DNA from: Zootoca vivipara
Taxonomy: Eukaryota
Assembly: GCF_963506605.1 (NCBI RefSeq)
Contig: NC_083289.1
Location: 54,064,001 to 54,128,000, forward strand
Direction: 5' to 3'
Length of the DNA: 64,000 nucleotides
Under the pieces are notes generated by a model that made no database searches, had not been told where the DNA came from, and saw nothing but the letters and a program-made list of their open reading frames with translations. The position numbers and the translations under genes are program-made. This document shows positions 4,005 through 30,738 of this stretch, one piece after another; position 1 is the first letter of the stretch, and each line of letters starts with the position of its first letter.

Positions 4005-4650
4005 ATGGTGTTGACCGACGACGACAAGAACCACGTGAAGGCCGTTTGGGCCGAGATCCAGTCCCATGCCGGGGACATCGGCGCCGAGGCCATCACCAGG
4101 TAAGCCCGCCCCGTCGGGCACAGACCCTCTCCCGGGGACGAGGCCGCGGGCCGGGCGGGAGTCGGACCGTCGTCTCCCTGCTCCTCTCCTCCTCCTTCTC
4201 CCGCAGGATGTTCGCAGCGCACCCCACCACCAAGACCTACTTCGCGCACATCGACGTGCACCCCGGCTCCGCTGACATCAAGGCGCACGGCAAGAAGGTC
4301 GCGGCGGCCATCGGTGAGGCCGTGGCGCACATCGACAACATCGCCGGCGCCCTCGACAAGCTCAGCGACCTGCATGCCCAGAAGCTGCGCGTGGACCCCG
4401 TCAACTTCGCGGTGAGTCTCTCTCGCTCCCCGTCGGGGCTCCAGGGCAGGCGGGCGGGCTGGATTCCTGCTTCGCTCCGTCCGGGGCCCCGACTAACGCT
4501 CTCCCTCCGCTTTTCCCGCAGCTGCTGGGCCACTGCATCCTGGTGGCCATCGCCTCCAACCACCCGGGGCTCCTCAAGGCCAGCACCCTCGTCTCCATGG
4601 ACAAGTTCCTGGGCCGCGTCGGTATCGTGCTGACCTCCAAGTACCGCTAG
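4005..4650 (+). CDS. HBA: Hemoglobin subunit alpha-A (142 aa, 3 exons)
   Basis: Exons 4005-4099, 4207-4411 and 4522-4650 (95/205/129 nt, canonical alpha sizes); GT-AG introns of 107 and 110 nt. Protein [49 protein letters not shown]...KAHGKKV...[25 protein letters not shown]...LTSKYR with distal and proximal His intact. [12 protein letters not shown] is alphaA-type. Confidence 0.97.
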
Positions 4651-7328: not shown

Positions 7329-7334
7329 TTTATT
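7329..7334 (-). terminator. Globin Y polyadenylation signal
   Basis: TTTATT on + (AATAAA on -), 60 nt downstream of the GbY TAG. Confidence 0.75.
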
Positions 7335-7394: not shown

Positions 7395-7549
7395 CTAGGG
7401 AGAAAGGGGGCGACTGTAGGCGGCTTCTACTTCTGCAAAGACGGCGTCAAAGAACTTTACCCAAGAGAGCCTCATGTCATCGGTGAACTCATCTTCCAGG
7501 AGTTCTTGGAAGACACAGAGAATGGTCTGAAACAGAAGCTGGGCAAAAA

Positions 7550-7585
<36 letters not shown>

Positions 7586-10500
7586 TAGGGGGCAGCTTGG
7601 GATGCATTCCCAGTGACCTCCAAGGCTCTAACCACTAGGCTCCCTTTCCAGAAGCCCTTGCTTGAGCGCCTCATGGATTCCCTGCCTGGCTTAGCCTGCA
7701 GGAGACAGCCCCAGGAAAGGCATTAAGCCTGATGGGGGGGGGGAGGGCAGCGGAGGAAGCCTGTGGCTGCTCTTGTGGCAAAGAGCAGTGCTGAGGAGGC
7801 CCAGCTGGGCTCCCTATCTGGTCCCTGAGGCCATTTCCCCCCAAGCCGTGCCCACCTGTCCCACACCTGATGCCACCTGTGCCAGCAGGTGTGGCCCGGG
7901 CACTTGCACACTTCCTGGGGCCTCCTTGCAGGGAAAGCTGGGGTGGGCTGCGCCAGGGAGTTCTTCGTCTGGAAGGTCCTGTCTGCAGCCCCCTGGTGCC
8001 TTCAGTGAGACCTGCTTGGCTTGGCTTCAGAGCACCCCTGCGCCAGACAGGCTTTGCAGTGAGCCCCACTGATGTGGCCCCCTGACCTCAAGACAATGCC
8101 AGGAGAGTGGCAGGGGGTGGCCTGCTGGGGATGCCAGGATCAGACTCAGGTCCCCCCCCCCCATGGGATGTATAATCAACGATGCAGTCAAATGCAACAT
8201 TTCCTGTTGCCTAGAATGGTGGACACACAGGGGAATGTGGCTCTAGACCGGGAGGGCTTCCTGTCATACCTGCTCTGGAGCATCCTCCCCCTGTGTGTGG
8301 CCAGGTAGGTGGGCGGGACCTTAGCAGACCCTACAAAAGGGCTGGCCATGCAGGCACCTTCCTCTTCTGCTCTCTTGGGCTCTCTGCTGGCTCTTAGCCA
8401 GCAGCACATGGCAGGACGGAAGCCACAAGGTGGAAAGTCTGAGGCCTAGCTCAGACTTCTTTTCTCTACAAATGTAACTGTAACTGCAACATGAAGCCTG
8501 CCTTCAAAATTCTTTACCCTTACTTTTAAACAAGACTGTCGTGTTGTTGTTGTTGTTGTTGTTATTATTATTATTATTATTATTATTAGTGGGAAATAAA
8601 AGGGGAAACTTACCAGCAACAATCCAGACTGGATTGCGTAACTTAAATGATTCTAACGAATCCATCAACTTGGCAATGCACAAGGGAATGTGCTCTGCTG
8701 CTTGCTCACTAGCGTGAGTGAGGAGGGATGATGTTTAATCAATATATCCTCTCCTACTTTCCTCAACATGCCCACACCCCCTGTGCCCCCTCCGGTTTGA
8801 AGGATCCCAGTTGCCCCGAGGGCACGCTGCCAGCCCAGCAGCTCCTGTGTCCTCCCCGCTTGCTCGCCCCCCCCCACTACCTGGAACATCTGTGAGGGCA
8901 CTTGGTGGACGTTCTTGTGGTTTTCCACCAGGCGCGCCACCAGCCGGCAGCCCTGCTTCCGGTTGTCCACGTTTTCAACCAGCTGGTTCAGAGCCACCAT
9001 GACCCTCCGGCCATGGGAGCCCACCTCAGGGTCCCCCAGCAGGTCGCCTTCCGTTGGGATGTTCTTGAAGAACTGCTTGCTGTCAGGGTGGTCTGTGAAG
9101 AACCTGCGTGCGGAAGAGCGAAGGTTCGCCTTGAGCGCAGAGCTCAGATTTCGTACAGACCCTTTTGAGTATCGCTGCCAAAGGCTGTGGGGGAAGCAGC
9201 ATTTGACCCCCTTCTTAACTCTCCCCCCCCCCTCTGGGCCTGGCTGAGGAGGACAGCCTGGCCTCACGGTCTGCAGAGTCTGCTTTGCTCAGGAGTCTCA
9301 GCTGGGTTCTTTCTAGAAGTGTCTGCTGGCTGCCGGCTGCTCCCTCCCTGACCGCCCCGCTTGATCCCCTGTGGATTTGGTTTGCATAGATGGTGCACTC
9401 CCTCAACTCTGTTGGGTGGGTGGCAGTAATGCCCAGTGGCCTGTTTCTTTCACTAATCAATAGGCCCCTCGACCACAGAAATCTCTGCTTCCAAACCTGG
9501 ACAAAACAGCATTCACAGAAGTCTGATCTTACTTGTCCTGCTCTGCCCCCCCCCCTTCCACTTAATTCCAGAAAGGAATTTGTAGATGGCTTTCACCCAC
9601 ACACCCACTTGGGACCTCCGGAAAGCAGAGGATGCCAGGGGAGCTGCAGCATATCTTCTGCAGCAGACATTCTGCCAGCCTCCTCTGGCTCCCACAACAA
9701 TGGCCTCCTGCTTCCCTCCAAGAGCTGCTCACCTGGAAGTCGCCCTTCCCCAGCCAGCCAGCACACTGCAGGGTTCTGAAGAGGAGCCCAGCATCCCAGA
9801 GGCCCCTCTGCTCTCCCTGAAGCTGCTAGTGGGGGCTCCTCCCTGAACAGAGGTGGAGAAATGGCCACCCCCTGCTTTCTGTCTCTTTTTGTCTCTGAGG
9901 GGTTCACCGATGATGTGCACCCAAAGGGCCCTCAGGAGGAGGAGGAGAGGATGGTGCCCTCCATCTCCTAACTCTTTCTAAAAGTCATTCTGATATGGCT
10001 CCAGGAGGTGCTCAGGAGGTGGTCTCTTAAATGGTGAGGGAGTGAAGCCAGGGGCATTGGATGGGGGCGGTCCGCCCTGGGTTCCACTCCAGGGGGGTGC
10101 CACTTGGCGCCCTCACCCCCTCGATTCCCAAGCCGAGCCTCCAGGCTCCCGGTAAAAAGTCCGCTCAGCGGTGCGCCAAGCGGACTTTTTACCGGGAGGC
10201 TGGGCTTGGGAGTCGCGGGGGTGGGGGCACCAAGTGGCACCCCCCCCCGCTGTGCCAAGTGGGCCTTCTACCTGGATCTGGAGGCACGCGGCTTTGGAGT
10301 CGCCGGGGGCGGGGCGGCGATACCCCGCTACGTAACACGCATGCGCAGCGCGATGCTGCGCATGCGTCGTTATGTGGCGGGATATCACCGCCCCCGCGCC
10401 TCCAAAGCCGCTCACCTCCAGCTACAAACTCCAGGTAGAAAACCCGCTCGGGATGCTGTACATGCATGTTACGTAGCAGGGTATCGCCGCCCCCCCGGCG

Positions 10501-11905
10501 CCTCCATAGCCGCGCGCCTCCAGCTACAAACTCCAGGTAGAAAGCCCACTCCTGAGCTACAAACTCCTGAATAGGCTTTTTACCTGGAGTTTGTAGCTGG
10601 AGGCGCGGGGCTTTGGAGGCGCCGGGGGGGCAGCGATACCCCGCCACGTAGCGACGCATGCGTTGTTATGTAGCGACCCCCCCCCCCGGTGCATGGCAAT
10701 TTGCCGCCCTGGGTGCCGCAGCGGCTCGCTACGCCGCTGAGCGAGCTGAGTGAAGCAAAGGGCTGCAGTGGGTTGAGGCCCGTTGCCTTCTGCATGGACT
10801 GCAAATGAGGTATGAAAAAGGCCAGGCTGTTACACAAAACTAATTCAATCCTATGTTGGAGGTGCAAACAGGGGGAGGGGACAATGGGGTGGGGCTGTGA
10901 AAAAAGTAAGAACTTTTGGGATATTGTATATGAGGAACTTAAAAAAATGTTTAAACAAACATTTGCGGAAAAAACCGGAAGCCTTTCTTCCAGACATTCT
11001 GACAACTGATATTCCAGATGACAAGAGGAGGGTTTTCTTACATGCAACAACAGCAGCAAGAATGTTGATTGCCAAAAACTAGAAGGGAGATAAAATTACA
11101 ACGAAGAAAGAACGGCAAATCAAATTATGTGAACACTTAGAACTAGCAAATATGACAGAGGCAATCAGGAACCAAACAATCCAAAAATTCAAAACTGAAT
11201 GGGAGTGTTACAGAGTATATTTAGAAGAACAGCATTCCCAAACCAAAATTCTTAACATGCCGTGATTAACTTTCGCAAATTAGATAACAGGCAGATAATG
11301 TACGTCATGTAAGAGCAATGAGCTAAACTGCGAAAAGGTGAAAAAGGACACAGTTAAAAAGAAAGAATGAAGGGTCCGTGGAGAGAAGTCATTTTTGAAG
11401 TATGAACGTAGAAGTGTTACTTGATGTTGAGCTATTATGATTTTCCTTTATGTATGTTATTGTGTTTTGAGTAATGAATAGAAATAACAGCAGTTCTAAC
11501 AAGCAAAGTTAATAAAGAATGTATCTATATACAGTGGTACCTTGGTTTGCAACCGTTTTGAATTACAACCACGTCAAACCCTGAAGTGTGTGTCCCTTAC
11601 AACCCCCTTTTTTTTATTGCAACCCTTTGGGGGGGGGCATTGGCGAAAGCGTGCCTTGGGTTATAACCTGTTTTGGTTTACAACTGGACCTCCAGAACGG
11701 ATTACGGTTATAAACCAAGGTATCACTTTAAAAGAGAAAGGCCAGGCGGGGAGAAACCGCCTCCGGCCACCAGGCGGCAGCACCTGACCTGATGAGAATG
11801 AGCCTGCCATTGGCTTCCGCCTCGTCAAAAGCCTTGAGCCAGCAAGTCTGGATGTGCAGCAGCTGTAGATCAGTCAGAGGCACCAGGGGCTCCAGGATGG
11901 GCAGC
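7395..11905 (-). CDS. GBY: Globin Y core exons; no ATG in this span
   Basis: Minus-strand exons 11905-11789 ([39 protein letters not shown], phase 2), 9103-8881 (223 nt; [74 protein letters not shown]) and 7538-7395 ([47 protein letters not shown]). Introns at canonical globin positions; CD1 Phe, E7 His and F8 His present. FKNIP.EG...[11 protein letters not shown] is GbY-like, and the position 3' of alpha-globin matches known GbY synteny. Confidence 0.9.
7551..7584. repeat. (TTA)n microsatellite abutting the GbY last-exon acceptor
   Basis: About 11 TTA units, ending 10 nt from the AG at 7540-7539. Confidence 0.95.
8541..8588. repeat. Compound (GTT)n(ATT)n microsatellite
   Basis: Read directly from the sequence. 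Confidence 0.95.
10049..10748. mobile_element. CpG-rich non-autonomous hAT-like DNA transposon with internal tandem and inverted repeats
   Basis: CAG...CTG termini and 8-bp TSD AGTGAAGC (10041-10048, 10749-10756). Internal hairpin at ~10127-10210. Repeated CCTCCAGCTACAAACTCCAGGTAGAA units in both orientations. Confidence 0.75.
10790..11520 (+). mobile_element. L1/Tx1-type LINE 3' fragment
   Basis: ORF2 C-terminal Cys motif [10 protein letters not shown]...[10 protein letters not shown] and [13 protein letters not shown], frameshifted. AT-rich 3'UTR ending in AATAAA. Confidence 0.75.
11532..11728. mobile_element. Tc1/mariner (Tigger-like) MITE
   Basis: TA|CAGTGGTACCTTGGTTT...AAACCAAGGTATCACTT|TA inverted termini. 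Confidence 0.75.
11765..11783 (+). promoter_or_regulatory. Candidate CTCF site
   Basis: GGCCACCAGGCGGCAGCAC resembles the CTCF core CCASYAGRKGGCRS with one mismatch. Motif match only. Confidence 0.5.
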
Positions 11906-12299
11906 CTGGGGAGGGGAGAAGAAGGAGGCAGGTGAGCTGGGCCTCAGGACCTTGGAGAGCTCAGGCTTGGAGGCCAGCAAGCAGCATCCCCTGGGGCCCA
12001 GAGGGAGAGAGAGCCCCTGGTTCCATCTGCAGTTCCAGGTGGGGCTCAGGCCCCGTTAGGTAGGGGCCCCCGAATCGGGCTTGGTGGTGCTGATGGAGGA
12101 CCTTTGCGGCAAGGAGGGCAGTGGGATTGTGCGCCTAAGATTCTCCCGCTTTGTCCATTTGACTTTCATCCGGAGTTTGTGCAGAGCAGTAGAAATATTA
12201 TCGATACGCCAAACCCACGTCAAGGGACAGTCATTGAGAGCCCCAACTCCTTTTGAATTATTGTTGGGATTGGCTAGGAAGGCAGAACAGGGTGGGGAG

Positions 12300-13730
12300 T
12301 CCAGACTCTAAAGTATGCTAATCCTAGTGGATATGGCTACAGCAGGTGGCTTCAGGTAGATGTGGGAAGCTGATTGGCAGATGACTATCAGCAAGGAGGT
12401 GTGGACCTCAATGTGCAGGAGGGAATTTCCTTTTAAATCAGTCTTGGCCCTTACTCGCTCCTCCTACTCGCCTGGAGGAGACTGAGAGGAGATATTAGTG
12501 CCACCTTCAAGTATCTGAAGGCCTGTCGCACGGAAGAGGAAGCAAACTTGTTTTCTCCTGGTCTGGAGGGTAGGACTTGAACCCATGGCTTCAAGTTACA
12601 TACAAGAAAGGAGATTCTGACTCAACATCAGGAAGGCCTGACAGTAAGAGGGTAGCAGGGCCCAGAGCTGTTCAGCAGGGGAACTGTCTCCCTCAGGAGG
12701 TTGCAGAGTCCCCTTCCTTGGAGGTTTTAAAGCAGAGGTTGAATGGCCACCTGTCATGGATGCTTGAGCTGAGATTCCTGCATTGCAGGGGGTTGGGCTA
12801 GGTGACCCTTGGGGGTACCTTTCAATTCTGATTCTATGGCCAAACTGCTGGAGTATCTCAGGTTCTAACCAAACCATGTGGTGGACGTGTGGGAAAGTGG
12901 CTCAGTTCTGGGCGGAAGTATTTGTCCAAATAGAAGCAACTACTGGACAAATGCCTCTAAATGCCTGGAGCTGGCTCTCTGCAATCTTTTTACAGGAGGG
13001 AGTATTAACTTACAGCTTCACCCTTTAGTAAACCTTTTTCGAGCTGCCAGGCTCATAAGAACAAGATACGGGAAGAACTTCAAGGAGGTTTCTCTGACAA
13101 ATTGGTCCAATTAAGTATGCCAAACTGAACTTGTGGAATTATAAAGCAATAAAATAAAATTGCTACAAGGCTCGAGGCACAAAGATTCTCTTGCTGCTGA
13201 TTGGCTCAGCTTTATTATGCGCATGGTTAAATATAAACTTCCTTCACATTGCAAAACATTTTGGTTTCCTTAAACAGTTTTTTGCCTGCTGTACAAACAG
13301 AAGTTTTTTTTGGATAAGAACTTACTATGCTCTTTGGTTCTTATTCTGCATCATGTGCTTTCTAAACCCCAGCTTCAGGGTTGGGCTGAGATATTTAATG
13401 ATTTATCTATATGACGTCTTTATATGTTGAAATAATTAAATACAAATTAGTTTAAAAGTGGGGACTTTTAAAAAGAACTTGCACACGCTGCACAGTTGCT
13501 CTGTGGACTTTGCTCCCACAAGATGTATTAATGGCCAGCAGCTTGGACAGCTTTAAGAGGGATGGGAAAATTAATGGAAGATTGCCACTGCAGCTAGTGG
13601 CCATTGATTATGTTCTACTTCCACAACTGGAGGTCATTTGTCTCAGTTTTGCACTCAGGTCCTGCTGCCGGACTTCCCTTTTGAGGCATCTGGTCGGCCG
13701 CTGTGAGAACAGGAGGCTGGACTAGGAAGG
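12300..13730 (+). mobile_element. Degenerate L1 3' fragment with a nested CR1 3' fragment (~12470-12838) and a further old CR1 fragment (~13480-13730)
   Basis: CR1 peptide LPQEVAESPSLEVLKQRLNGHL with an ATTCTGATTCTATG tail. L1-like CWSISGSNQTMWWTCGKVAQFW. LPQDVLMASSLDSFKR in the second CR1 piece. Confidence 0.6.
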
Positions 13731-13887
13731 CCTTTTCTTTGCGCTTCCAGATTATTGGCACTTAGGAGGGCATTGTGAAAACTTAAAACTGTGTTACGAG
13801 CTGTATTGTAACACATCTATGGCACGGCCACACGTGGAACGCTTTACTTATCACAGTTCTCTTTATTCTACTTTCCGGGATGTAATT

Positions 13888-14137
13888 CAGGGGCCAGCAA
13901 ACTTTTTCAGCAGGGGGGCGTTCCACCGTCCCTCAGACCTTGTGGGGGGCGGACGGACTATATTTTGAAAAAAATAAATAAAATATGAACGAATTCCTAT
14001 GCCCCACCAATAACCCAGAGATGCATTGGAAATAAAAGCACACATTCTACTCACGTAAAAACACACTGATTCCTGGACCGTATTTAGAAGGCCATTGGGC
14101 TGGCTCTGGCTCCCGGGCCTGAGTTTAACTACCCATG
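13888..14137. mobile_element. hAT-type MITE (same family as 51209-51675 and 44118-44335)
   Basis: Start CAGGGGCCAGCAAACTTTTTCAGCAGGGGG is shared with the copy at 51209. Degenerate end and TSD. Confidence 0.7.
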
Positions 14138-14343
14138 ATGTAGTGCATACAGTTCTGGTTATTACCTAAAAAATATTTTAAGAGCTGGGAAAAGCGCAGG
14201 AGAGGGCAATGGAGACGATCAGTGGTTGGAGGAGCAAGTTCCCCAAAAGGAAAGGGAACAATTTGATTGCCGTCAGGCTGAGACAGCCCAACAGGAACCA
14301 CAGCCCTACAGTTGCAGAGCAGAGGCCAGGGGTGGGGAGTAGG

Positions 14344-14906
14344 TGTGGCGAAAAAGTTGGTTTTGCTGGACAGGTTGGTTCAACAAGAGTTTCTTTTTTC
14401 TTTCTTTCCCTGCCAGCAAATGGTTCAGAAAAGGCAGCTTCTGATTGGCTGTGGTTCCGGGAGGGAGAGTTTAAAAGCAGAGGATTTGAAGAGAGACAGG
14501 GAGGTGCAGTTGGAATTGAGGGTGGAGAGGTTGGGAGACAGGTTGAGGTAAAAAGAGGGAAAGGTTGCGAACAAACAAAAAAGAATTTCCACCAGATATT
14601 TTGGGACTCCAATTCCCATCATCTCTGACCACTGGTCCTGTTAGCTAGGGATGGTGGGAGTTGTAGTCCCAAAACATCTGGAGGGCAAAGTTTGGCTATG
14701 CCTATTATAAAAAAAAAGGAACCAACTTATAACGCAACCAAAAACAACTGAGGATGAGTTAAATAGCATTGTATTCCTGAAGTAACCTAAGTTTTTTTAC
14801 TTGTGTTATATACTATCTTGCCTTAAACAAATCTTTATTGTTTATTTAAAGAAAACCCACCTGAGACTCCAACTGGCTAGTTATCCCCTCACAACGGTCC
14901 CCCACA
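14344..14906 (+). mobile_element. Possible solo LTR, with a partial hAT MITE at ~14595-14703
   Basis: TG...CA-like ends and the LTR-like promoter string CTGATTGGCTG...TTTAAAAGCAGAGG. No clean TSD found. Confidence 0.3.
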
Positions 14907-15018
14907 GGATAATATGGGTTAGAATTTGAAGAGAAAAAACCTTCAGATAAAGGGTTGCTCAGTGAGGTGGGGGCAGATCCGAGAGAGACGGGGGCCAAGG
15001 GCTTGAGAGGAAAAAGTA

Positions 15019-15432
15019 CAGTGGTGCCTCGCTTAACGAACGCCCTGCTTAACGAAATTTCCGCTTAACGAAAGGATTTTTCGAGCGGAGGTTGCTTCGC
15101 TAGACGAATGCGTTTTCGTCTAGCAAATCGCGGTTTCCCATAGGAATGCATTGAAATTCAATTAATGCGTTCCTATGGGCAAAAGTGTTCTCGAAGCTAC
15201 GAACATGAGTTTGACCAAACTGCGGGAGGCAGTGGAAGACAGGAGTGCCTGGCGTCCTCTGGTCCATGGGGTCACGAAGAGTCGGACACGGCTAAACGAC
15301 TCAACAACAACATGGGCAAAAAACAATTCGGAAAAAATGCAAATGCATTCCTATGGGACTCGCTGGACGAATTTTTTCGTTATAAGAAAAGACCCGTGGA
15401 ACGAATTAAATTCGTCTGGCGAGGCTCCACTG
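15019..15432. mobile_element. Tc1/mariner MITE with a nested BovB 3' fragment
   Basis: TA|CAGTGGTGCCTCGC...GCGAGGCTCCACTG|TA. BovB 3' end at 15185-15311 (EATNMSLTKLREAVEDRSAWR, (CAA)n tail) with a 10-bp TSD ATGGGCAAAA (15175-15184, 15312-15321). Confidence 0.88.
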
Positions 15433-15904
15433 TAGCTTGCGGCATCTGTGCTTTAGCTGGCAACTGCCTTGAACGTCGCTCATCATGGCTTGGAGTTACT
15501 CATAAAGTCTACCTCTAGGGTCCTCTTGTATGATGCGTGTCATCCAGGTGGATTTTAATGAATTCAATAGCGCAAAAGGTTACTACGAGTCATGGGGTGT
15601 GTGGCGGATGCCGTGGATTTAAAAAATAGTACATTCATAGAGTTTAGCTTATTTTTTAGTTGCTAACTTGTTAATATTGCTTCATAGATTATAAATGTCT
15701 ATTTGGTGATCGTATGACGTATGCTGCAATTATGCTGTTTAGCTTATTTTTTAGATGCTGGTTTGATAATGGTGCTTTCATGGATTGCAATCACGCTACA
15801 GACCATTTTCTATTGCAGGATTTATGCTGTACTTGTTATTGTTATGTATGTATTGTTTGGGTAGAAAATGGCACCCAGTCGGCAACTTTAGAGTCTGTTG
15901 CGTT

Positions 15905-16876
15905 TATAGAATCATAGAATCATAGAATCATAGAGTTGGAAGAGACCACAAGGGCCATCCAGTCCAACCCCCTGCCAAGCAGGAAACACCATCAAAGCAT
16001 TCCTGACAGATGGCTGTCAAGCCTCTGCTTAAAGACCTCCAAAGAAGGAGACTCCACCACACTCCTTGGCAGCAAATTCCACTGCCGAACAGCTCTTACT
16101 GTCAGGAAGTTCTTCCTAATGTTTAGGTGGAATTTTCCCTCTTGTAGTTTGAATCCGTTGCTCCGTGTCCGCTTCTCTGGAGCAGCAGAAAACAACCTTT
16201 CTCCCTCCTCTATATGACATCCTTTTATATATTTGAACATGGCTATCATATCACCCCTTAACCTTCTCTTCTCCAGGCTAAACATACCCAGCTCCCTAAG
16301 CCGTTCCTCATAAGGCATCGTTTCCAGGCCTTTGACCATTTTGGTTGCCCTCTTCTGGACACGTTCCAGCTTATCAGTATCCTTCTTGAACTGTGGTGCC
16401 CAGAACTGGACACAGTACTCCAGGTGAGGTCTGACCAGAGCAGAATACAGTGGTACTATTACTTCCCTTGATCTAGATCAGGCATGTCAAACCTGCGGCC
16501 CTCCAGATGTTTTGGACTACAATTCCCATCTTCCCCAACCACTGGTCCTGCTAGCTAGGGATCATGGGAGTTGTAGGCCAAAACATCTGGAGGGCTGCAG
16601 GTTTGACATGCCTGATCTAGATGCTATACTCCTATTGATGCAGCCCAGAATTGCATTGGCTTTTTTAGCTGCTGCATCACACTGCTGACTCATGTCAAGT
16701 CTGTGGTCTACCAAGACTCCTAGATCCTTTTCACATGTACTGCTCTCAAGCCAGGTGTCTCCCATCCTGTATTTGTGCCTTTCATTTTTTTTGCCCAAAT
16801 GTAGTACTTTACATTTCTCCTTGTTAAAATTCATCTTGTTTGCTTTGGCCCAGTTGTCTAATCTGTTAAGGTCATT
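15905..16876 (-). mobile_element. Young 5'-truncated CR1 LINE, near-identical to 1335-2990
   Basis: (ATTCTATG)n tail and ORF2 C-terminus [30 protein letters not shown]. Interrupted by a MITE at 16479-16614. Confidence 0.95.
16479..16614. mobile_element. 136-bp hAT MITE
   Basis: TIRs CAGGCATGTCAAACCTGC...GCAGGTTTGACATGCCTG. TSD ATCTAGAT (16471-16478, 16615-16622). Confidence 0.92.
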
Positions 16877-17028
16877 CTGAATTTGCTGCCAGAGTAGCTG
16901 CAAGTTCTTATTTATTACAGAAGAGAGGGAACCTGAACCTGTTTAGAAGAAAGGCAAGCGGCATGGACAGCTTCCCTCTCTTCTGTAATAAATAAGAACT
17001 TGCAGCTACTCTGGCAGCAAATTCAGAA
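16875..17028. repeat. Perfect 57-bp inverted repeat with a 40-bp spacer
   Basis: 16875-16931 is the reverse complement of 16972-17028. Confidence 0.92.
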
Positions 17029-17229
17029 GAGAGGCAAGTTCTTCTTTAGGGAAGTTCTTCCCTGTTTAGGGAAGTTTTTAATGACTGATGTTTTAATATA
17101 TTTTAAATCTTTTGTTGGAGGACTCCCAGAGTGGCTGGGGAAACTACATCGTCATCATCATACTTATTAATTATTATTATTATTATTATTACTTCCTTAG
17201 ACAATGTGCCATTGGTGAGATCTTATCTG

Positions 17230-18950
17230 CACGGGCTCCCTTGGCTTAAAAGGCGATGAGTCCAATCCACGGAGAAGCGCTCTCCGCAGCTCCAGGCAGG
17301 CCGTCTCAATGGAGCCTCCCTGCTCGGGCGCAGTCCCCCTGTCCGGCTCCCTCCCTTCCCGGGCCTGGCTCGGCCCCCGCCCCTACCCCACTCACTCAGG
17401 GGGCGCCCTGCACCAGGAGCGCCCGGGGGAAGCCATGCCTCTGCCACCACCGAACTTTCGACCGACAACGGCCGCGGGGGGCGGTTGGGGGGCGCTTCGC
17501 GAGGCGCGCCGGGGAGACGCTGCCGCTTGCCATATGAGGGGTTTTTTTTTTTGCAAAGCTCCTGTCGAGGGGGGCTCCACCCCCAAAGGGCCATGTGGCC
17601 CAGGGGGCTCCGCGCAAGATGCGCCCGTGCGCCGGCGGGCGGCTTCCCGGCGAGGCTCCCCGTCCCCGTCCCCGTGCGCGGTGCAGCGGTGCCACTGCCA
17701 GGCCCGTCGCTCGTGCCCGTCTCCGGGAGGGTTAGGGGCGGGGCACAGCCCGCAGCGCAGCGGCCGAGGCGCGCGCCCGCAACCGCCTCCCTCCCTCTGT
17801 CCGTCCCTCCCTGGCCCCCCCCCTCGGGTGTCCCCGTGACGTCAGCGCCGGCCCGGGGCCTCGGCGGGCGATGGCGACGCAGGAGGGCGAGAAGGCAGGC
17901 GCTCCGGGCTGAGGCGCGCCTGCTGCTGCCGGCTTCCCCTGGCCCCGGGGGCCGCCGCCGCCACGGCTCCGATGGCGTCCGGCCCGCTCGTGCTGGCGCT
18001 GCTGGTGCTCCTGGCCCCCGCCGCCCCCTCGCCCGCCAAGGAGACGCGGAGCAGCAACGGCGGCGGCCCCGACGGTAAGTAACGGCCGGAGGCAGCGCCA
18101 CTGCCCGGCGGAGCCGCACTGCGGAGCAGCGGGACGGAGTGGCACTCTGCACACGCCTAGAGGACCGCGGCTCCTGCGCCTTCGTGACAGGGTCGCGCCT
18201 GGCAGGGACAGCGGCGCCTCCTGCCCCGCAGCTGCTTGGGGGGATTGGGTGTGTGTGTGTGGACCGTTTCCCTCTTCCTGACCCGACACCTTTGGATGCT
18301 CGCTCGGGTTTGAGCCCGTGGCGGCGGCGGCAGCGGAGGAGGGGCGCAAGGAGGCGAGACGGAGGTCCAGTTCAGCCACGGCGCAGGTGGCCTTGGGTTA
18401 CCTCGGGGAGAGGCCCGCGGGCCGCCCCGTCTTCAGTCTTCCAGCCCCCTTTAGCCCCCTCGCCCGCAGAGAGAAGGCGCTTGTGGGGACCCCAGCAGTC
18501 ATTTGGCTAAAAGGGCCCCCTCCCGGCCAGTCCCTGTTGGAGGTGACCCCTTCCTCGGGTTGCCTGGGGGGGAGGGGCGCCGTGTTTTCGTCTCTTATTT
18601 GGGGGAACGGATGGTTCGTCCGGTTCTCGCTTGGCGCGGGGGGGGGGCGGGGCGGTGCCGCGATGGAAAAGTGCCGCTGCCAGGCTGGGGCGGCGCCCGG
18701 GTCACGGAGTCCTTGCTTTGCCCGGGGAGGCCGGTGGCGCAACGCCCGGTTCCCAGTTACCCGCAGGGCAACCTTTGCCTTTGCAGCGAGTTGCGCGGGC
18801 GGCGGGGCGGGACGTTGGTTGAGCATCACTTGGGCGCGTGGAAAGCGGCGGAGGGGGTCTCTCTCCTCGCCGGAAGAGCGGCGGATGGCTGGACCGGTCA
18901 GGCAGGCTCCCTCCCTCCCGCCCGACGGGTCAGCCGGCTTGTCCGCATTC
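17230..18950. promoter_or_regulatory. CpG island / PGAP6 promoter, probably bidirectional
   Basis: Very high CpG and GC content. GC box GGGGCGGGGC at 17735-17744 and perfect palindromic CRE TGACGTCA at 17837-17844. No TATA box. Confidence 0.85.
17396..17436 (-). CDS. Candidate first coding exon of globin Y (MASPGRSWCRAPP-E)
   Basis: Minus strand GAGGC ATG G (G at -3 and +4), then 13 codons plus GA, then donor GA|GTGAGT at 17396/17395. Phase 2 matches the acceptor at 11905 (GA|G = Glu). No transcript evidence available. Confidence 0.55.
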
Positions 18951-21900
18951 TCTCGCGTGTGCGCCTTGACTCAGCGCCCACTGCTTCCTCTGCCTTGGGG
19001 AGAACCAGCACCCCTCCCCCAGCGGATTCCTTTCCTTTTAGGGTCGGTCACCCGAACCTCCACTTCTTGCCCATCTTAGACTTGATCTTGTTGCGTGAGG
19101 GGCTGAGCATGGGGTGCAGGGGGTTGGCATGGCACACCCTGCCCCGTCCCCTATCCCTGCCTATCGCACCTTTGTTTGTCAGTCACTGCGCTGTGCACTC
19201 CGCAAACAGGCAGGTGCCTGGCGCCCTGGTCCCCGCAGGCCAATCCCCTGGGCTTGCCGGCTCAGCCCTTTCAGGAAATGCCAGTCCTTGTGGCAGGCTG
19301 TGTGCTTGGCAGAGCTGCCTCCTCCCCATGACCTCCTTTCCTGAACTCCCCTTGACCTTGCTGCAGGGCAAGCTTGGGCAAGGCAAGACCTTCCTGGCCC
19401 TCAGGGGGAAGGGGCAAGCACCAGGCCAGCTTCTATTGCCTGGAGGCCAGAGAGGATCCCGTGGCTTTGGACAAGCCCCCTGCCAGCTCCTTGTGGGAAG
19501 CCAGAGGCATGGGGGGGCACTGCCCGCCCCTTCATGCTGCTGCACTTGGCAGAGACTGGCGGGGGGGGGGGGGCTGGCTGCTGATCCGCCTGTGGTGGGA
19601 AGCACTACCTGCCCAAGGCTGGCTGAGCCAGAATTCTTTCCCCTGCCCATTTCCTGACCGCCTGCCCCCCTCCTCCCCCCGCAGACCGGTCCTTAGTGGC
19701 GGAGTATTTCGTCCAGGGTGCCCAGAAACTCTCCTTCTACAGCTGGTATGCCAATGCCAGGCTCTTCCGCTTCCGCGTGCCAGAGGATACCGTCCAGCTG
19801 CGCTGGCTCCTTCAGGCGGCCCAGGGAAGGGGTCCCGACTGCGGCAGCACAAACGTCACCATGTACGTAGCTACCTCCCCCTTCTCCCCGGGGAGCTCAG
19901 CCTGCCGGCTTCCTCCTGGAAAGAGGGTGGCCGCCTCCCCTCCTTCTGCCCCACTGACCTGTGTGTCTCCTGCTGACTTCCAGCCACTTCCGCCATGGTG
20001 CCCCTCCTGTTATCAACCCCCTGGGCACGCAGTTCCCAGCCAACACAAGCGTCCGCCTCGCCTACAATCTGACCACGACTCTGGCCACTCTGGTGCAGAA
20101 CACCACCTTTGTCAATGTCACAGGGCCTGCCGCAGGCGACTGGTTCATGGTGGCCCACCTGCCCAAGGCTGCAGAGAGGATTGAGGTGAAGGTGAGAGCA
20201 GGGGGCCTGCTTGGTTGGAGTCTGGGGGGTGGGGGTGGGAGGATCCTGCAGCTGCTGCATTGGGACTTTGCTGGCAGTTTCTGGACGATCTTCTGCTGTG
20301 CCCGGGGCTGCAGGCGGAGGCCCCTGAATGTCCTCTTGTGCCGAGTGTGGCCTCCTCCTGCCAGCCACGGTGGTCCAGGAGGCTGGCCGTGATGCGTCCC
20401 TCCCTCCCTGCAGGGCATCTCAACGCCATGCACCTACAGTTTCCAGCCGGACATGTTTGTGCTGCGCGTCATCGACACGCTGATTCTTGAGCCCGACACT
20501 CCTGTGCAGCAGTCCATTGCCCAGCCCGCCAGGCCCCTTCATGCCAAGTGAGTGCCCCCCATCTCCCTGGGCACCAAATCCTGGTGCTGGTGGGCCTGCC
20601 ATGTGCTGGCCAGCTAGAGTCAGCCGCTCCTCCCTCTCTATCCTTCTTCCCCCTGCAGGGTCTTTGTCCCCGGCTACAGTGCCGTGCTGCACTTTGAGCT
20701 GAGCGGCTGCAAGGTGAACACTTCCAGCCCCTGCGCCCTCCGTGTCACGCTGGGCTCTGCCACGCTGCCTTTGCGCTCCCAGAAGGTGCTCAACTGCTCC
20801 GGGGACTGCAGCGGCGTCCTCGCTTCGCCACCGTGGGAGAAGTGGCTGCCCATCACGGTGGAAAGCCTCAGCGGCCCTGGGACCAAGGTCTCCTTTCAGC
20901 TGAAGGCCTCCTTCACAGGTGTGTGCCAGCTGCAAGAGGGGAGGGGCAAAGGTGGGGTGCCAAGCTGTGTCAGCTCGCCAGTGCCTGAGTCTCTGCTGCG
21001 GATGCCCCAGCTGTGGGTCAGGAGGTGGGTTGCCCTGCCCTGCTGCCTTCTTGTCCTGAGGCCCTCGCTGACCCTGTGCCGTATCCTTTGCAGTATGCCA
21101 GCCTGACAGGGCCAGCTCCTTCCTCAGCTTCTACCAGAGCCTGAACCGGAGCCAGGAGGCACCTTTGCCAGGAGGAAGCCCCAACGCCACCCTTGGCCAA
21201 AGCAGCCCCTGCCTGCGCAACCAGCCTGTCATCCGCGAAGACCTGGACGTGGTGTCTCTGCATTTCCGTGTCCTTGGGGACGTTGGTGTGCCTGTCCAGG
21301 CCGAGCCCCCGGCTTTGCTTCTCTTCAACCTGAACTCGGGCATGGACAGCGGGGGGACGCTGGTGCTGAATCTGGCCCTTAACCAGGTAAGAGGGTTGAC
21401 CTGGCACTGCCCCTCTTGGGGCACTGAAGCCTGACTGCTAGGGGAGAGGTGCCAGCTGAGTTTCTTTCCTGCTTTGTCCTTGCAGACTGACTGGAGCCTT
21501 GGGAATGCCTCGGTGTGGGCCTGCTTGAGTGCCAGCTCCCCTGTGCTCTCTGCGAACGCCACGAGGGGCTGCCACACAGGTACATGGCACAGCAGGTCCT
21601 TGCTCGCAGCAACGACCGGTGCTGGGGGTGGGAATGCCCGGGACAAAGTGCTTCTCTGCTTGTTGCACCCGAGCCCTGGGAGGGCACTGAAACTGGCAGG
21701 CTGGGCGCTGGTTGCTGACGGAGTTTGGGCACTAACAGCAGGCCTGCCTCTCTTCTCTGCCCCACAGCTTTCTCCCAAGGCTACCCGCTGAACGTGTCCA
21801 CCTCTTCTCCAGATGCTACACTCATCATCCCGTACCCAGAAACGGACAACTGGTTCCTGTCCCTGCAGCTCCTCTGTCCGGAGGCTGTGGGGTGAGTCCT

Positions 21901-24630
21901 GTCACTCTGGTGGTGCCAGCAGTAGTGGTGGCAGCAAGGCCTCTGGGGCCAAGGTTCCTGAGCACCTCTCAGGCAGGGGTTTCTGCTGCCTGGTACTCCC
22001 CTTGCCTTGGGCCTCTTTGCCTTTGTGGGTTGGTGCCAGGAGGGCTCAGTGTCCTTGAGTGGCACATGGGTGCTCTCTCTCTCTCTGCAGGGAATGTGAC
22101 AAAGCCAAAGCCCGGGTGTCTATTGTGACCTACCTCAGCCCCTGCTTCGATAACTGTGGGACGTATGGGCAGTGTAGCCTCCTGGGACGCAGTTACCCTT
22201 ATGCCGGGTGCAGCTGCAAAGCGGGTAAGAGCTTTTCTGGACTGCCTGGGGCCAAGGCCACCAGGGCCTGTCCCTCCTCTACCCTCCTTTCCTCCTCTTT
22301 GGCTTCCTTCCCTGGGCAGGGCTAGCCTGACCATAATCAGCATCTGTTCTCCTCAAACCTCTCATGCCCCAAGCCCAGAGTGAAAAGGCCGCAGGGTGGT
22401 ATCCTGCACAGCAACCAGCCTCTTAGAAAGTGAGCCTAGCTGGAGGGGGCCCATCCTGGGGGCTCTGGGGGATGCTGCGCAAGGTGGCAGCCTTAAGGAT
22501 GGGCCCTCCGCTCCCCACCTGGGGCAGAGGCTGCATTGGCGCGATGCTCCTGACAGGTAACGCTGCCTCCCCTGGCAGGCTGGAGTGGCTGGAGCTGCAC
22601 GGAAGACACCAAGGCCCAGCCTGTCGGCACACAGATCCTGGCCACGCTCCTGCTGACGCTCAGCAACCTCTTCTTCCTGCCGGCGATCGCTGTTGCACTT
22701 TACCACTACCACTTGGTGGAAGCCTCCGTTTACACCTTCAACATGTTCTTCTCCACCGTACGTCCAGGCTTCCCCTTCAGTGGGATGGGTGCTGAGCGGG
22801 ATCCCAGCCGCCTGTTGGGGTGGGGCAAGGCCCGAGCAGGCCCTTCTCTGGGGGGCACGGCAGGCAGGCAAGCCAGCCCAACCCTCCACTTTCTCTGCTT
22901 GCCTCATTCTGGTAGTGGGGCGGCTGGGGGAAAGCGGAGGGCTCCTTGATCCTGGTTCAGTGCCCCTTGCACTGCCCTGTGGCATCCTCAGGCTGCTGCT
23001 CTGGCCATGTGCCCAGTGGGGCTTTGGCACCTCCAGACTTTGGGCTCAGGTGGCAAAGAGCTGCAGTGGGAGTGGGGCCTTCTGACCGGCACCTTTTCTC
23101 TCCTCTGTGGCCACAGTTCTACCATGCCTGTGACCAGCCCGGCGTTGCAGTGATGTGCATCATGGATTATGACACACTGCAGTTCTGCGACTTCTTTGGC
23201 TCTGTGGTCTCCATCTGGGTGACCGTCCTGTGCATGGCTCGACTGGAGAAGACCCTGAAATATGTACGTTGGGGGCAAGCCAGCAGGTGGGGTACTGCAT
23301 GGGAGGGGGCTGTTGTTGGCAGCGAGCCCCTCTAAAGCCAGGGCAGGCCCAGTCCTGAGCTCACACCTTGAGTGTCGCCAGCACGACTTCCCCTCGGGCG
23401 GGAGGCACTGAATAAGAAACAAAATGGATGCAAGAAAATGAACGCTATGTATTTTTGCCCTGTGTATTTTGCGGGTTTCCCATCCTGGTGTTGCCAGGTG
23501 GACTGAGAGCCAGAGTTGGGCCAGAGAGGCAGGCAGGCAGGCTTCCCGTCTTCCTGGGCCTCCGCTGCTGTTTCTCATTGAAAAGCAAGGGTGTCACTGG
23601 ATGTTAGAAAAGGTAAAGATGCCAGCAGTATGGCCAAATGTCCCAAAGGCGGAAGGGGCTGCATGAGGACTCAAGGCACCATTTCGCCAAAAGGCAGAAT
23701 GCAGAGTTCAGAAATGAACTATCCCAGCAAGATTTTGTGGCTGGGACCTCCTGTCTTTGCCCCTGGCATCCTGAAGTGATACCAGCAGGTGAGCTGGAGC
23801 GGCCCGGGCTGCCTTCCTCATCCACCAGCCACAGACTCCCAAGGAGGTTCCAAGAACAGCTCTGACTTCTCCTCTCCTTCCTTGCAGGTCCTCTGTGTGA
23901 TGGGGACCCTGTTCATCGCCATGTCACTGCAGCTGGACCGCCGAGGGGTTTGGAACATGATGGGGCCCTGCCTTGTTGCCCTCCTCATCATGATTGCCGC
24001 TTGGGTAGGTGGCTCCTTCTATGACCCCTTATGGATCGAGTCTTGAGCATCTCCTGGCTCAGGTTGCAGCTCTTAGCAGTGGGCTGGGCGGAACCTGCAG
24101 CAGGTATTTTACCTTTAAGGTGTAGGCTTCCCCCGCCCTTAACTTCATCACCCATCAAGCGCTTTTGGAGCGCAGCCAGCTGAGGAAAGACCCAGCTGAC
24201 TCCTCCCAGAGCCTTGGGCTGGGTGGGTGGGTACGCCTGGTCTCCGTGGATGGGCAGAGCCCACATCTAGAGACCCTCTGGCTGTCCTCTGCCCTACCTG
24301 GGATGGCTCATAACCCCCGACCTCCTCCTGCAGGTTCACCGTGGCGTGACACGGCGCGACTGCTACCCGCCCTCCTGGAAGCGCTGGGCTTTCTTCCTCT
24401 GCCCTGGGATCACCCTGGCTGTGGTGGCAATTCTGGTTTATGCCTTCATTCAGACCAAAGAGAACTATTTCTACACCCACAGCATCTGGCACATCCTGGT
24501 GGCCTCCAGTGTGGCCTTCCTCCTCCCACCCGGAGACAAGCTCCAGAATCCGTGGGACTGGCCCCGCAAGCTGCTCTGCCGCTACCAGATTTGCAAGAAC
24601 GACCGCGAGGAGCTCTATGCGGTGACGTGA
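17972..24630 (+). CDS. PGAP6: Post-GPI attachment to proteins factor 6 (TMEM8A), 755 aa, 13 exons
   Basis: Exons 17972-18074, 19685-19862, 19984-20191, 20414-20547, 20659-20918, 21094-21386, 21486-21579, 21768-21891, 22091-22224, 22579-22757, 23117-23263, 23888-24004, 24334-24630 (2268 nt; all GT-AG, phases consistent). Signal peptide MASGPLVLALLVLL; motifs LSFYSWY, GAPPVINPLG, EGF-like CFDNCGTYGQC..CSCKAGWSGWSC, TLSNL, FYHACDQPG, YTHSIWH; C-terminus YQICKNDREELYAVT. Confidence 0.96.
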
Positions 24631-27279: not shown

Positions 27280-27545
27280 TGGTTGCCTGCAAGGAATTGC
27301 CACACGGCAGCATTGATGTCGGCCAGCCTTCATGTCCCATTTGCAGACATCTTTGTAACACAGCGTTGGCCTGGTGCGTGAAGCCAGCTCCCAAAAGAGC
27401 ACATCCTTGGGGATCCTGCCATCTTCCAGTCCGTGGATATGGCCAAGCCAGCGTAGATGTTGCTGAGACAGGAGTGCAAACATGCTGGGAATGTGGGCTT
27501 GGGAGAGCACATCTGTCCTGCCATGTGATACCCAATTTCCCTGAC
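27280..27545 (-). mobile_element. Old RTE-clade LINE fragment
   Basis: IPSMFALLSQQHLRWLGHIHGLEDGRIPKDVLFWEL resembles the RTE C-terminus. Confidence 0.7.
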
Positions 27546-27659
27546 GCAGCACATAAATTTAATAAATAATAATAATAATAACAATAGATTAATACACCCT
27601 AATGATAAGAGGGTTAGTGACCCCATTCCCTGCTTCAGTCCGCCTCCCGTGGTTGTTGT

Positions 27660-28140
27660 ACGAGGGGAAGAGGGCGCGGGGGGAGAAGCGCAGCACCCGC
27701 GCCCGCCTGGAGCCCCTGGGGAAAGCGGGGCGCTGTGGGGGCGAAGCCGAAGCAAGGAGAAGGCCTGGTCGCCCCGACTCCCGCGCGCGGCCTTGTCGAG
27801 CGAAGCCCCCTCGGATCCTCGCGAGGCGCCGCGGGCCCGCTGCCATGGTAACGGCGGAACTCTCGGAAACGCGGCGCTCTCGCTTCCCTTAGGTCACGCC
27901 CTCAGCGGCGCTCTGCTCCAATGAGAAGGAAGCAGGAAGAACATCCTTCTTTCCTCCCCGTCTCGCGGCCGCGCTTTGCTTCCGGGTCGGCGGTGCCCTG
28001 CGCCTGCGCGAGACCGCTTCTTGACCTTTGCCCTCGCTTTGGCGGAAGGAGCTTGCGCCATGGCTCGGCGGGCGCAGACGGAGGCCTAGGGGACGCCCGA
28101 CCGACTGACCGGCAGCCCTCCTTCGCTCTCTCGCCCTCTC
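27660..28140 (+). promoter_or_regulatory. MRPL28 CpG-island promoter with RFX-like, ETS/GABP and NRF1 motifs
   Basis: GCTGCCATGGTAAC at 27839-27852, CTTCCGG at 27979-27985, TGCGCCTGCGC at 27999-28009. An acceptor at 28147 implies a non-coding first exon in this region. Confidence 0.65.
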
Positions 28141-28158
28141 GGTTCAGCCGGCGGCGGG

Positions 28159-30738
28159 ATGCCTCTGCACAAGATCCCTCCGCGGCTGTGGGACGCGCTG
28201 AAGCTGCAGAAGGGCATCTACGCGCGCCTGCCGGCCCACTACCTCCGCGCGCTGAAGGAGGAGACCGCGGCGCCGCCCGTCGCCGTCCACTGGAAGCCCC
28301 GCGGCGTCCAGCACGCGCGGAACCGCAAGACCGGCCAGCGGGAGCGCGTGCAGGACGTGCCCGTGCCTGTCTACTTCCCTCCCGAGAGCCAGCAGGGCCT
28401 GTGGGGCGGCGAGGGCCTGGTGTGCGGCTGGCGCTACGCCAAGGGAGACAAGGTGCGCAGCCGGGGCCCAGGGGGCGGGGCGGGGCGGGCGGACCCCGGC
28501 TCGGGGGAAGGTCGGGGGCGCATGCCTCGCACGGCGGAGGAGGCGCCTGGCTCCAGGATCCGGGGAGCCGCTGCTGCCGGTCAGTAGAAGCGACGCCCAG
28601 TGGGGCCTCCCATTCAGTCTAAGCTGTCCCTTCCCAGCTGCCAGGATCTTGGCTGCACCTGCTCTTCCTTGTGTCCACAGCTTGCCGCCAGGGTAAAGAA
28701 GACCTGGAAGCCGCAGCTCTTCTATCGAACTCTCTACAGTGAGATCCTGGATAAGACGCTGACGATTACAGTCACTATGCGGACGATGGACCAGATTGAT
28801 GCCGCCTATGGCTTTGATTATTACATCTTAAAGGTAGGTTTGTGGTGATAGCTTGACAGGCTGTTCTGTCTGCAAGCGTGGGAAAGTCAATATGACAGCT
28901 ATCAGATGGATACTTCATGATGGCTGTGAACGGTGTGGCATGAAGCAGCCTTTGTGGGCCACATCCCAGAGCTCTCCTTTGAGTGATGCAGGTTCTTCCC
29001 TGAACTATTTGCCAGAAATCATAAGGACTGTAGTCTGCTTGCCCTTGAAGGCCTCTCTTTGCCCTGAACAAATAAGTGGAAACTGTTGACGAGCCGTTGC
29101 ATCTTTCTCTGACCTCACAGACCCCAAAAGCTGAGCTGTGTTCTAAACTGGGCATGGACCTGAAACGCACAATGCTTTTACGACTTGCCCGCCGGGATCC
29201 TTCCCTCCATCCAGATGACCCAGCAAAGAGGGAGGCTATTTACGACAAATACAAGGTGGGTGCCTTCCTTTGCTGCGAGGGCCTGGAGGGGCCCATAAGT
29301 GGTGGCCTTCCCGTGGGAATGCTGCAGTACCATTTCAGTTCCCTCTCAGTTCAGTTTGGTCCAGGGAGCTATTGTAGTGGGTGAAGAGGCACACCTACGA
29401 ATCAGGAAGTCCCAGTTCAGATCTTGCAGTGTTGCTTTAAGGATTACAAATAGAATAATGTCTGTAGAATGCTTTAAATACATAATAGTAAAAATTATTT
29501 CCCCACCCCAAGATGCCCACATTGGTTGGGTGATTGCAGTAGCTAATTTTTTGCTTTTGAGCCAGCATCCACCATAATCTGCAAATCATCATTCTTGTAG
29601 CAACAATAAGGGCTGTAGATTTGTTATGAAAGCTTTCCCCAGCTTTTTCCCCAGCTGTGCTCTATCTCCCAATTCCTAGAATTTGGCTAGAGGGACACAC
29701 GGCGCTGGTGGAAGTTGCATAGTTAGAGGGCATAGAAAGGCCCGTATAACTATCCTTAATATGCCTGCGGATATAATGGGGGTTGTTACTGTCTTTCCAC
29801 CCCTGGTAATGTGGAATCCAGTGGCATCTTGGGAAAGGCTGTAGTGACAAGGGTGATAGAGCCCACATTTGCTTTGTATGCCCTATTATCAGCAGGATAG
29901 GGTTGGGAACCCCTGAAAAGCTGCTAGTCAGTGAACAATATGATGGGCTAGTGGTCTGACAAGGTAGTTTTCAATCTTGCTGTCTTTGCTGTCTCCCAAT
30001 GAGTCTCTGTGCTGAGAGCTAACATGTGTTACCTTTGCATGCAGGAGTTTGTGATCCCAGAGGAAGAGGCAGAATGGGTTGGGCTGAGTTTGGAAGAAGC
30101 TGTGGAAAAGCAGCGACTCCTGGAGAAGAAGGTATGTCTTCACCCTTTGTGTTTGTGGCCCAGTCCCAGTCAAGTATTGTCTCTGAAACATCCACCTATG
30201 ACCCTCGAAGCTGTGTAAAATAACAGTGCTTTATGCTTTTATGCTAAGGTGCAATACATTCCATTGCTAAGGTTTGCTGTTTATGGGACTACATGCAATA
30301 TAGTTTGCTTAGTTACCGAGGGGTGGGAGGCAACTTAGTCAGACTCTGCAGATGCTAGTCTGGCTCCTGTAATCACTTGTATCCAAAATGCTGTGGATTT
30401 CTCTCGAGGGCTGCTGTGATGCTTTGGATTAGCTCACACATAACACTTAAGGCGTGTCTTACTTGGATTATCTGAGCCCAGCCCAGAGGCTTCACTGTGA
30501 AAAAGCCACGTTAGTAAATCTGGGATTATAATCTGTGGTTAACATTGACTGTGGCCTTGTTATAAGGTGCAAACCTAGCCTTTGTGCAATCCGGTCTCTT
30601 CCTCACCGTGTCTTCCCTCCCTGCCCCCAATCTTTCTCTCAGGACCCTGTTCCTTTGTTCAAAGTCTATGCAGAAGAACTGGTGCAGCAGCTCGAAGCAC
30701 AGAAACTGTCTGAATCGGCTGAAGTGCAGAAGGTCTAA
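28159..30738 (+). CDS. MRPL28: Mitochondrial ribosomal protein L28 (bL28m), 254 aa
   Basis: Coding exons 28159-28452, 28681-28833, 29121-29255, 30045-30131, 30643-30738 (765 nt). [11 protein letters not shown]...GLWGGEG...KTWKPQLF...LYSEILD...[24 protein letters not shown]...[18 protein letters not shown]. polyA candidates ATTAAA 30778-30783 and AATAAA 31267-31272. Confidence 0.97.

Follow-up and report, generated by a model that had tools for sequence, protein, structure and literature searches.

The globin Y gene (GbY) of Zootoca vivipara, read on the minus strand of the 64-kb stretch of DNA analysed here (the window), lies between an alpha-globin gene and a TMEM8A/PGAP6-type gene, both on the plus strand, and it poses a simple question: where does its translation begin? 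A sequence-only reading had held that the ancestral ATG is lost and that the first exon has become internal, and had offered three explanations, namely an upstream coding exon, initiation on a CUG codon or incipient pseudogenisation. We found a CTG codon at the old start, an exon further upstream, a splice between the two exons in one contig, and an open frame. It is very probable that the upstream coding exon 17436-17396 is spliced to position 11905 and that the predicted start on its ATG gives an intact GbY of 174 residues with a 20-residue N-terminal tail. The first of the three explanations was thus borne out, the exon having been found and its splice seen in contig X9, while CUG initiation and pseudogenisation gained little support. 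The features of the locus are collected in Table 1.

Table 1. Features of the globin Y locus, with positions in the 64-kb window
Feature	Position	Strand	Description and evidence
Alpha-globin gene	4005-4650 (ATG 4005, stop 4648-4650)	+	First gene from the left
Polyadenylation signal	7329..7334	-	AATAAA; sequence
Last coding exon	7395..7538	-	144 nt including TAG
Middle globin exon	8881..9103	-	223 nt; Phe65, His83, His115; contig X8 joins it to 11789
37-nt cassette in intron B	11042..11078	-	AG acceptor, GTAAGA donor; contig X9 joins its 5' 30 letters to 11789
Former first exon, now internal	11789..11905	-	117 nt, phase 2 on both sides; contig X9
CTG at the ancestral initiator position	11884..11886	-	Leu21 of the 174-aa protein; sequence and contigs
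Splice acceptor	11906..11940	-	Branch-point-like CTCAC, A at -28; polypyrimidine tract; CAG; used in contig X9
Extra first intron	11906..17395	-	5490 nt, GT..AG, phase 2; several high-copy repeats inside
Alternative first exon, 167-aa isoform	17212-17193	-	RefSeq; ATG 17212, C at -3
CpG island	17250..19250	.	GC 0.65-0.78, CpG observed/expected 0.68-0.90; between GbY ATG 17436 and TMEM8A ATG 17972
New first coding exon	17396..17436	-	41 coding nt; ATG 17436-17434; 13 codons + 2 nt; donor GTGAGT after 17396
TMEM8A/PGAP6-type gene	ATG 17972; PF12036-matching exons at 22572-24627	+	Pfam
Alternative first exon, 214-aa isoform	26748-26588	-	RefSeq; ATG 26748, A at -3

Identity of the gene and state of its old start

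With alpha-globin on its left and TMEM8-type exons on its right, the gene has the synteny expected where globin Y is present. The plus-strand neighbour is named TMEM8A/PGAP6 by synteny; three of its exons match PF12036. The gene from about 28159 is taken as MRPL28, also by synteny, the piece of it that was tested being without a Pfam match; about 100 nt before its ATG (28159), an upstream open reading frame of 9 codons was read by eye on the plus strand (~28060-28090, approximate coordinates). The order alpha-globin, GbY, TMEM8A, MRPL28-like gene is the sauropsid one, as given in the accessible text of PMC5786229 and PMC4524481.

The protein matched turtle models at 45-51%, platypus and tailed-frog models at 38%, and cytoglobin structures at 28-31%. 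Phe65, His83 and His115, which we take to be the CD1 Phe, the E7 His and the F8 His, were invariant in 25 of 25 alignment rows, and PF00042 was matched. The structure predicted by AlphaFold2 from 25 sequences (mean pLDDT 90.3) matched cytoglobin and myoglobin in a fold search; its globin part reached 93-98, residues 1-11 stayed below 50, and helices run from residue 26. In this model the 20-residue N-terminal tail is likely to be flexible. In the parts available of the two sources, turtle 'cytoglobin-1-like' records are identified as GbY (PMC4524481), and the function of GbY is called obscure (review PMC7475203).

The loss of the ancestral ATG was confirmed, the minus-strand codon at 11886-11884 being CTG in the window and in two contigs. 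The first, a 902-nt contig of a DNA-type run (X2), spans 11675-12576 with no other letter, and this run bears the same study code as the best sequence holders, of which it is not fully independent; the second, from run X9 of another study, covers 11789-11905, again with no other letter. A sequencing error at 11886 is excluded by these contigs, which both read CTG, and Leu is also present at the site in Lacerta agilis. With the CTG taken as the first codon, the three exons (11886-11789, 9103-8881 and 7538-7395) measure 98, 223 and 144 nt. These are the lengths of the platypus GBY coding exons (PMC2529266, Table 1), and the CTG therefore occupies the place of the ancestral initiator; models from turtles, platypus and tailed frog begin with Met in its column. 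As had been described, 154 codons and one terminal stop are counted from 11886, an in-frame TGA lies at 11946-11944 with no in-frame ATG between it and the CTG, and the remaining gene is intact in its frame, its splice sites and its AATAAA at 7334. Without an upstream exon, the first in-frame Met would come at codon 68 of the 154, past the distal His.

Translation from the CUG at 11886 would yield the 154-aa protein of the ancestral type, either by itself or together with the 174-aa form, which we hold to be very improbable. The codon is one base away from ATG and has a G at +4, but its context is weak at -3 (C), as had been noted. At 300-500 nt above the old exon there are CACCC, CCAAT and GATA motifs (CCAAT at 12377 and 12273, CACCC at 12294 and GATAA at 12202, within 12377-12202 on the minus strand), which are perhaps the remains of a proximal promoter. 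No CpG island was found in the region above the old first exon, which speaks against a start there, as does the presence upstream of an in-frame ATG in strong context, spliced on.

The upstream exon and its splicing

The acceptor proposed from the sequence (AG ending at 11906, exon starting at 11905, 19 nt before the CTG, with the frame open) has pyrimidines at 21 of the 22 positions from -25 to -4. Contig X9 (200 nt, depth 4.1) matches the window exactly at 11789-11905. Since the match stops exactly at 11905, the acceptor is not a chance match; the contig then passes into the upstream exon, so that the former first exon has indeed become internal. The loose end past 11905 counts 44 letters, and the 30 that are displayed are all (30/30) those of 17396-17425, a 30-mer unique in the window. 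The middle exon is 100% identical to the Zootoca vivipara RefSeq protein and has a single match in its own genome (8 candidates scored), on which ground a second GbY copy or a retrocopy was rejected as the origin of the spliced contig.

The exon reached by this splice encodes the N-terminus of RefSeq XP_034986447.1; its coding length is counted from the ATG. Joined to the three exons downstream, it gives a 174-aa translation that is identical to that record. The exon was located by mapping the RefSeq protein to the window. When we scanned upstream for an exon with an ATG and a strong donor, none passed the cut-off of 5, because the true donor (TGA/GTGAGT) scored 4 of 7. A tblastn search of the window with long Podarcis N-termini, done with the low-complexity filter off and with many spurious GC-rich matches, had as its best match P. 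muralis at 17961-17395 (E 7e-29), which was used lightly.

Six runs, RNA by record or by guess, bore on the old exon: two gave a piece of it and one crossed the acceptor, so that the 5' junction is that of one contig (X9), from a run whose RNA status is a guess. Contig X8 joins 11789 to the middle exon; it starts within the old exon and is thus silent on the 5' side. The productive path is a composite of contigs X9 and X8 and of the RefSeq model, no single record spanning the upstream, old and middle exons productively. Coverage was sparse: raw RNA runs X5-X7, of which about 6 in 100 reads were sampled, barely covered the GbY exons, the joints and loose ends listed for them being taken up by repeats, and over the old exon run X7 gave no read and run X10 no contig. 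The search for runs holding the sequence listed none on record as RNA. At position 9090, contig X8 has T for C (coding strand), that is Tyr58 instead of His58, as in Lacerta and Podarcis; the difference is probably allelic.

The new ATG is in a strong context (G at -3 and at +4), and its exon sits inside the CpG island. GbY and TMEM8A are head to head with their ATGs 536 nt apart, and the island is likely to be a two-way promoter common to both genes. Transcription would then probably start in the island and translation at ATG 17436, and the product would be a 174-aa protein with a flexible N-terminal tail. Above the new start on the minus strand, out-of-frame ATGs are present at 17594 and 17533; they would compete with it if transcription begins above them. 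The reading frame that begins at 17533 runs for 45 codons and finishes on the final three bases of the upstream exon.

RefSeq lists three isoforms whose sequence is common from the acceptor on, each model translating to its stored protein. Their first exons, at 17436-17396, 17212-17193 and 26748-26588, each have a phase-2 GT donor. It seems hardly credible that one of the last two (167 or 214 aa) predominates and leaves the 174-aa form in a minor role: both are RefSeq isoforms with a GT donor and a frame open in the window, and their listing makes the 17436 exon the probable rather than the certain main 5' exon, but neither peptide was present in any relative retrieved, unlike that of the 17436 exon, and the only junction seen uses 17396. 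The exon at 26748-26588 is on the far side of TMEM8A, some 1 kb below the following CpG island (27500-28500), and a transcript from it would cross all of TMEM8A antisense.

The other end of contig X9 does not go on to the middle exon but enters, at 11078, a 37-nt cassette, whose 3' end was deduced from its donor and from the 39-letter loose end of the contig. Inclusion of the cassette is predicted to shift the frame and to bring a stop at codon 72, more than 200 nt before the last junction. A stop that far ahead of the last junction makes a transcript a target for nonsense-mediated decay, as a cassette-bearing GbY transcript would be. The old exon is symmetric (117 nt, phase 2 to 2), and skipping it preserves the frame; Podarcis lilfordi (P0006) and Ahaetulla (P0046) have models of this kind, whose products would be without the first helices.

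Globin Y N-termini in squamates and turtles

Automatic gene models were gathered by protein searches and cluster look-ups for 33 squamate species, 21 turtles, two monotremes and one frog; three of the 33 squamates had no model of the old exon and were excluded, which left 30. A profile search of 50% representatives yielded no further informative GbY N-termini. The GbY records are misnamed throughout (beta-Z-like, alpha-D-like, cytoglobin-like, myoglobin-like, and even superoxide dismutase).

The old site is without Met in 23 of the 30 squamates (2 lacertids, 4 iguanians, 13 snakes and 4 geckos). Six keep it (three Podarcis, Rhineura, Varanus and Tiliqua), all of which also have an extended model, and the Lerista model (1/30) begins one residue after the site. 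Of the 21 turtles, 20 have Met at the old site, and the other has it one residue further on. The lost ATG is thus no peculiarity of the Zootoca genome, and the four-exon model was already in RefSeq. In the echidna model (P0102) the old start is occupied by Ser, and a Met stands seven residues further on, at a position that is Lys in platypus; this monotreme may have undergone a start-codon change of its own.

The described form of GbY has three coding exons and 154-156 aa from the ancestral Met; that of Zootoca has four exons and 174 aa, and this extended form is common to most squamate models. Lacertids, Rhineura, Varanus, Pogona, several snakes and Gekko all have an extension of precisely 20 residues. 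As in Zootoca, it is made up of 14+6 residues in Lacerta agilis and in three Podarcis species, and 12 of the first 14 residues are identical between Zootoca and P. raffonei. The upstream-exon peptide is identical at 11-12 of 14 positions between Varanus and five snakes and at 9 of 14 between Rhineura and Varanus, but only at 2-5 of 14 between lacertids and other squamates. From these models, squamate GbY seems to be a gene of four coding exons with a conserved tail of about 20 residues, and to have lost its ancestral start repeatedly.

The splice sites were compared through the alternative models. The skipping models of Podarcis lilfordi and Ahaetulla join residue 14 directly to the middle exon, and the donor is therefore at the same point. 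The point at which models part lies 6 residues ahead of the old site for Zootoca and three snakes, and 5-7 residues ahead of the Met for the turtles Mauremys mutica and Pelodiscus. Since the turtle models diverge near the same point as the squamate ones, the acceptor would be older than squamates, which suggests that the acceptor 19 nt before the old ATG predates the loss of the Met.

Leu occupies the old site in 16 of the 23 Met-less squamates (2 lacertids, Sceloporus and 13 snakes), a bias that the use of near-cognate codons, hence a CUG start, could explain; but Leu is the simplest one-base change from Met anyway, and Pro, Ala or Val stands there in geckos, anoles and Pogona. In Anolis and Sceloporus, a Met stands three residues after the site. 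The Met follows Pro in five of the six Met-keeping squamates, a residue which by the genetic code forces a C at -3; in the four turtle species whose extended models have the Met, it follows Ile, which forces an A.

Counted on the accepted squamate tree, the old Met appears to have been lost three to four times, with a regain possible in some lineages. Already in the turtle-squamate ancestor, a non-coding 5' exon would have preceded this acceptor, 19 nt ahead of the old ATG. Early in squamate history, initiation would have passed to an ATG lying in frame within the 5' exon; the old ATG, internal and in a weak context, would have become dispensable and then been lost in geckos, in iguanians, in snakes and in Zootoca together with Lacerta. 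The two facts of the sequence-only reading (ATG lost, exon become internal) thus stand, but the order that it implied does not: the exon was likely internal first and the ATG lost later.

GbY could also be decaying in the Zootoca lineage, with a real upstream exon, a product under relaxed selection and many non-productive transcripts, a situation which we judge highly unlikely. Over positions 21-174, Zootoca (P0004) has 15 private residues, among them His58 (Tyr in X8), against 3 in Lacerta and 5 in P. raffonei. Its end branch is longer (0.12, against 0.028 for Lacerta and 0.012-0.028 for the relatives), Tyr64, which is nearly invariant, is replaced by Phe, and the sole contig showing the 5' junction carries the frameshifting cassette. 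None of six outgroup rate tests was significant at 0.05, though (chi-square <=3.0; GbY alone, no control gene). Phe65, His83 and His115 are retained, and the Met loss is common to many squamates with intact frames. The gene itself does not look like a pseudogene: its 174-codon frame is open and has an ATG, its splice sites are canonical, two of its junctions are in contigs and its polyadenylation signal is intact. The gene tree, which comprised GbY and no other globin type and whose alignment included the old start site, grouped Zootoca with Lacerta (92/84) on a backbone without resolution.

Comparison with known systems

The apparent anomaly of the Zootoca gene is thereby removed, the gene being intact and correctly modelled. 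A three-exon annotation would label squamate GbY as truncated or as a pseudogene, and recombinant work based on it would use the wrong N-terminus. The locus also offers a clean case of start-codon turnover, both starts being kept in Podarcis, Varanus, Rhineura and Tiliqua and only the new one in other lineages.

The mechanism is ordinary, and the gene model was already captured by automatic annotation under wrong names; the comparative squamate pattern offers globin specialists something new, if modest. RefSeq XP_034986447.1 ('hemoglobin subunit beta-Z-like isoform X2') has the same 174 aa and the same four exons; automatic and misnamed, it is silent on the lost ATG and on the squamate-wide pattern. 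In the literature searched, which did not extend to subscription papers such as the original frog and anole GbY papers, no extra exon, N-terminal tail or lost start was found for squamate GbY. Compared with platypus and turtle globin Y, as described in the accessible parts of PMC2529266 and PMC4524481, that of Zootoca has four coding exons, not three, 174 aa, not 154, and Leu, not Met, at the old start.

Globin X, according to the available text of PMC3176823 and PMC4524481, resembles squamate GbY in having an N-terminal extension ahead of the globin domain, by which it is anchored through myristoylation at Gly2 and palmitoylation at Cys3. Unlike globin X, GbY has Ala (as in Zootoca) or Ser (as in Lacerta) as residue 2 in the squamate rows of the alignment, none of which has Cys3; no anchor of the globin X type is therefore predicted.

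The sauropsid inversion brought TMEM8A beside the globin cluster (PMC5786229, in the part available). A possible but doubtful extension of our reading is that it supplied GbY with a CpG-island promoter and a 5' exon, that squamates made this exon coding, and that the 20-residue tail conserved between the monitor lizard, snakes and the worm lizard serves, under selection, in targeting or interaction, which would make squamate GbY functionally unlike that of turtles, frog and platypus. The inversion as the source of the promoter is speculative; a hint comes from stingray, the GbY exons of which are annotated into Luc7l (PMC13023373, in the part available) and are therefore on the same strand, the 5' end of GbY facing the later breakpoint.

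In these sauropsids the arrangement of GbY and TMEM8A can be set beside a more general one. It is known that genes can acquire a 5' exon from the two-way CpG-island promoter of a neighbour, the start codon turning over in the process. The GbY locus is like these in its head-to-head genes, in the short first exon within the island and in the probable decay of the old start after a new one arose upstream. It differs from them in that an ancient globin is affected, and in its possible tie to the sauropsid inversion, as far as the latter is described in the available text of PMC5786229.
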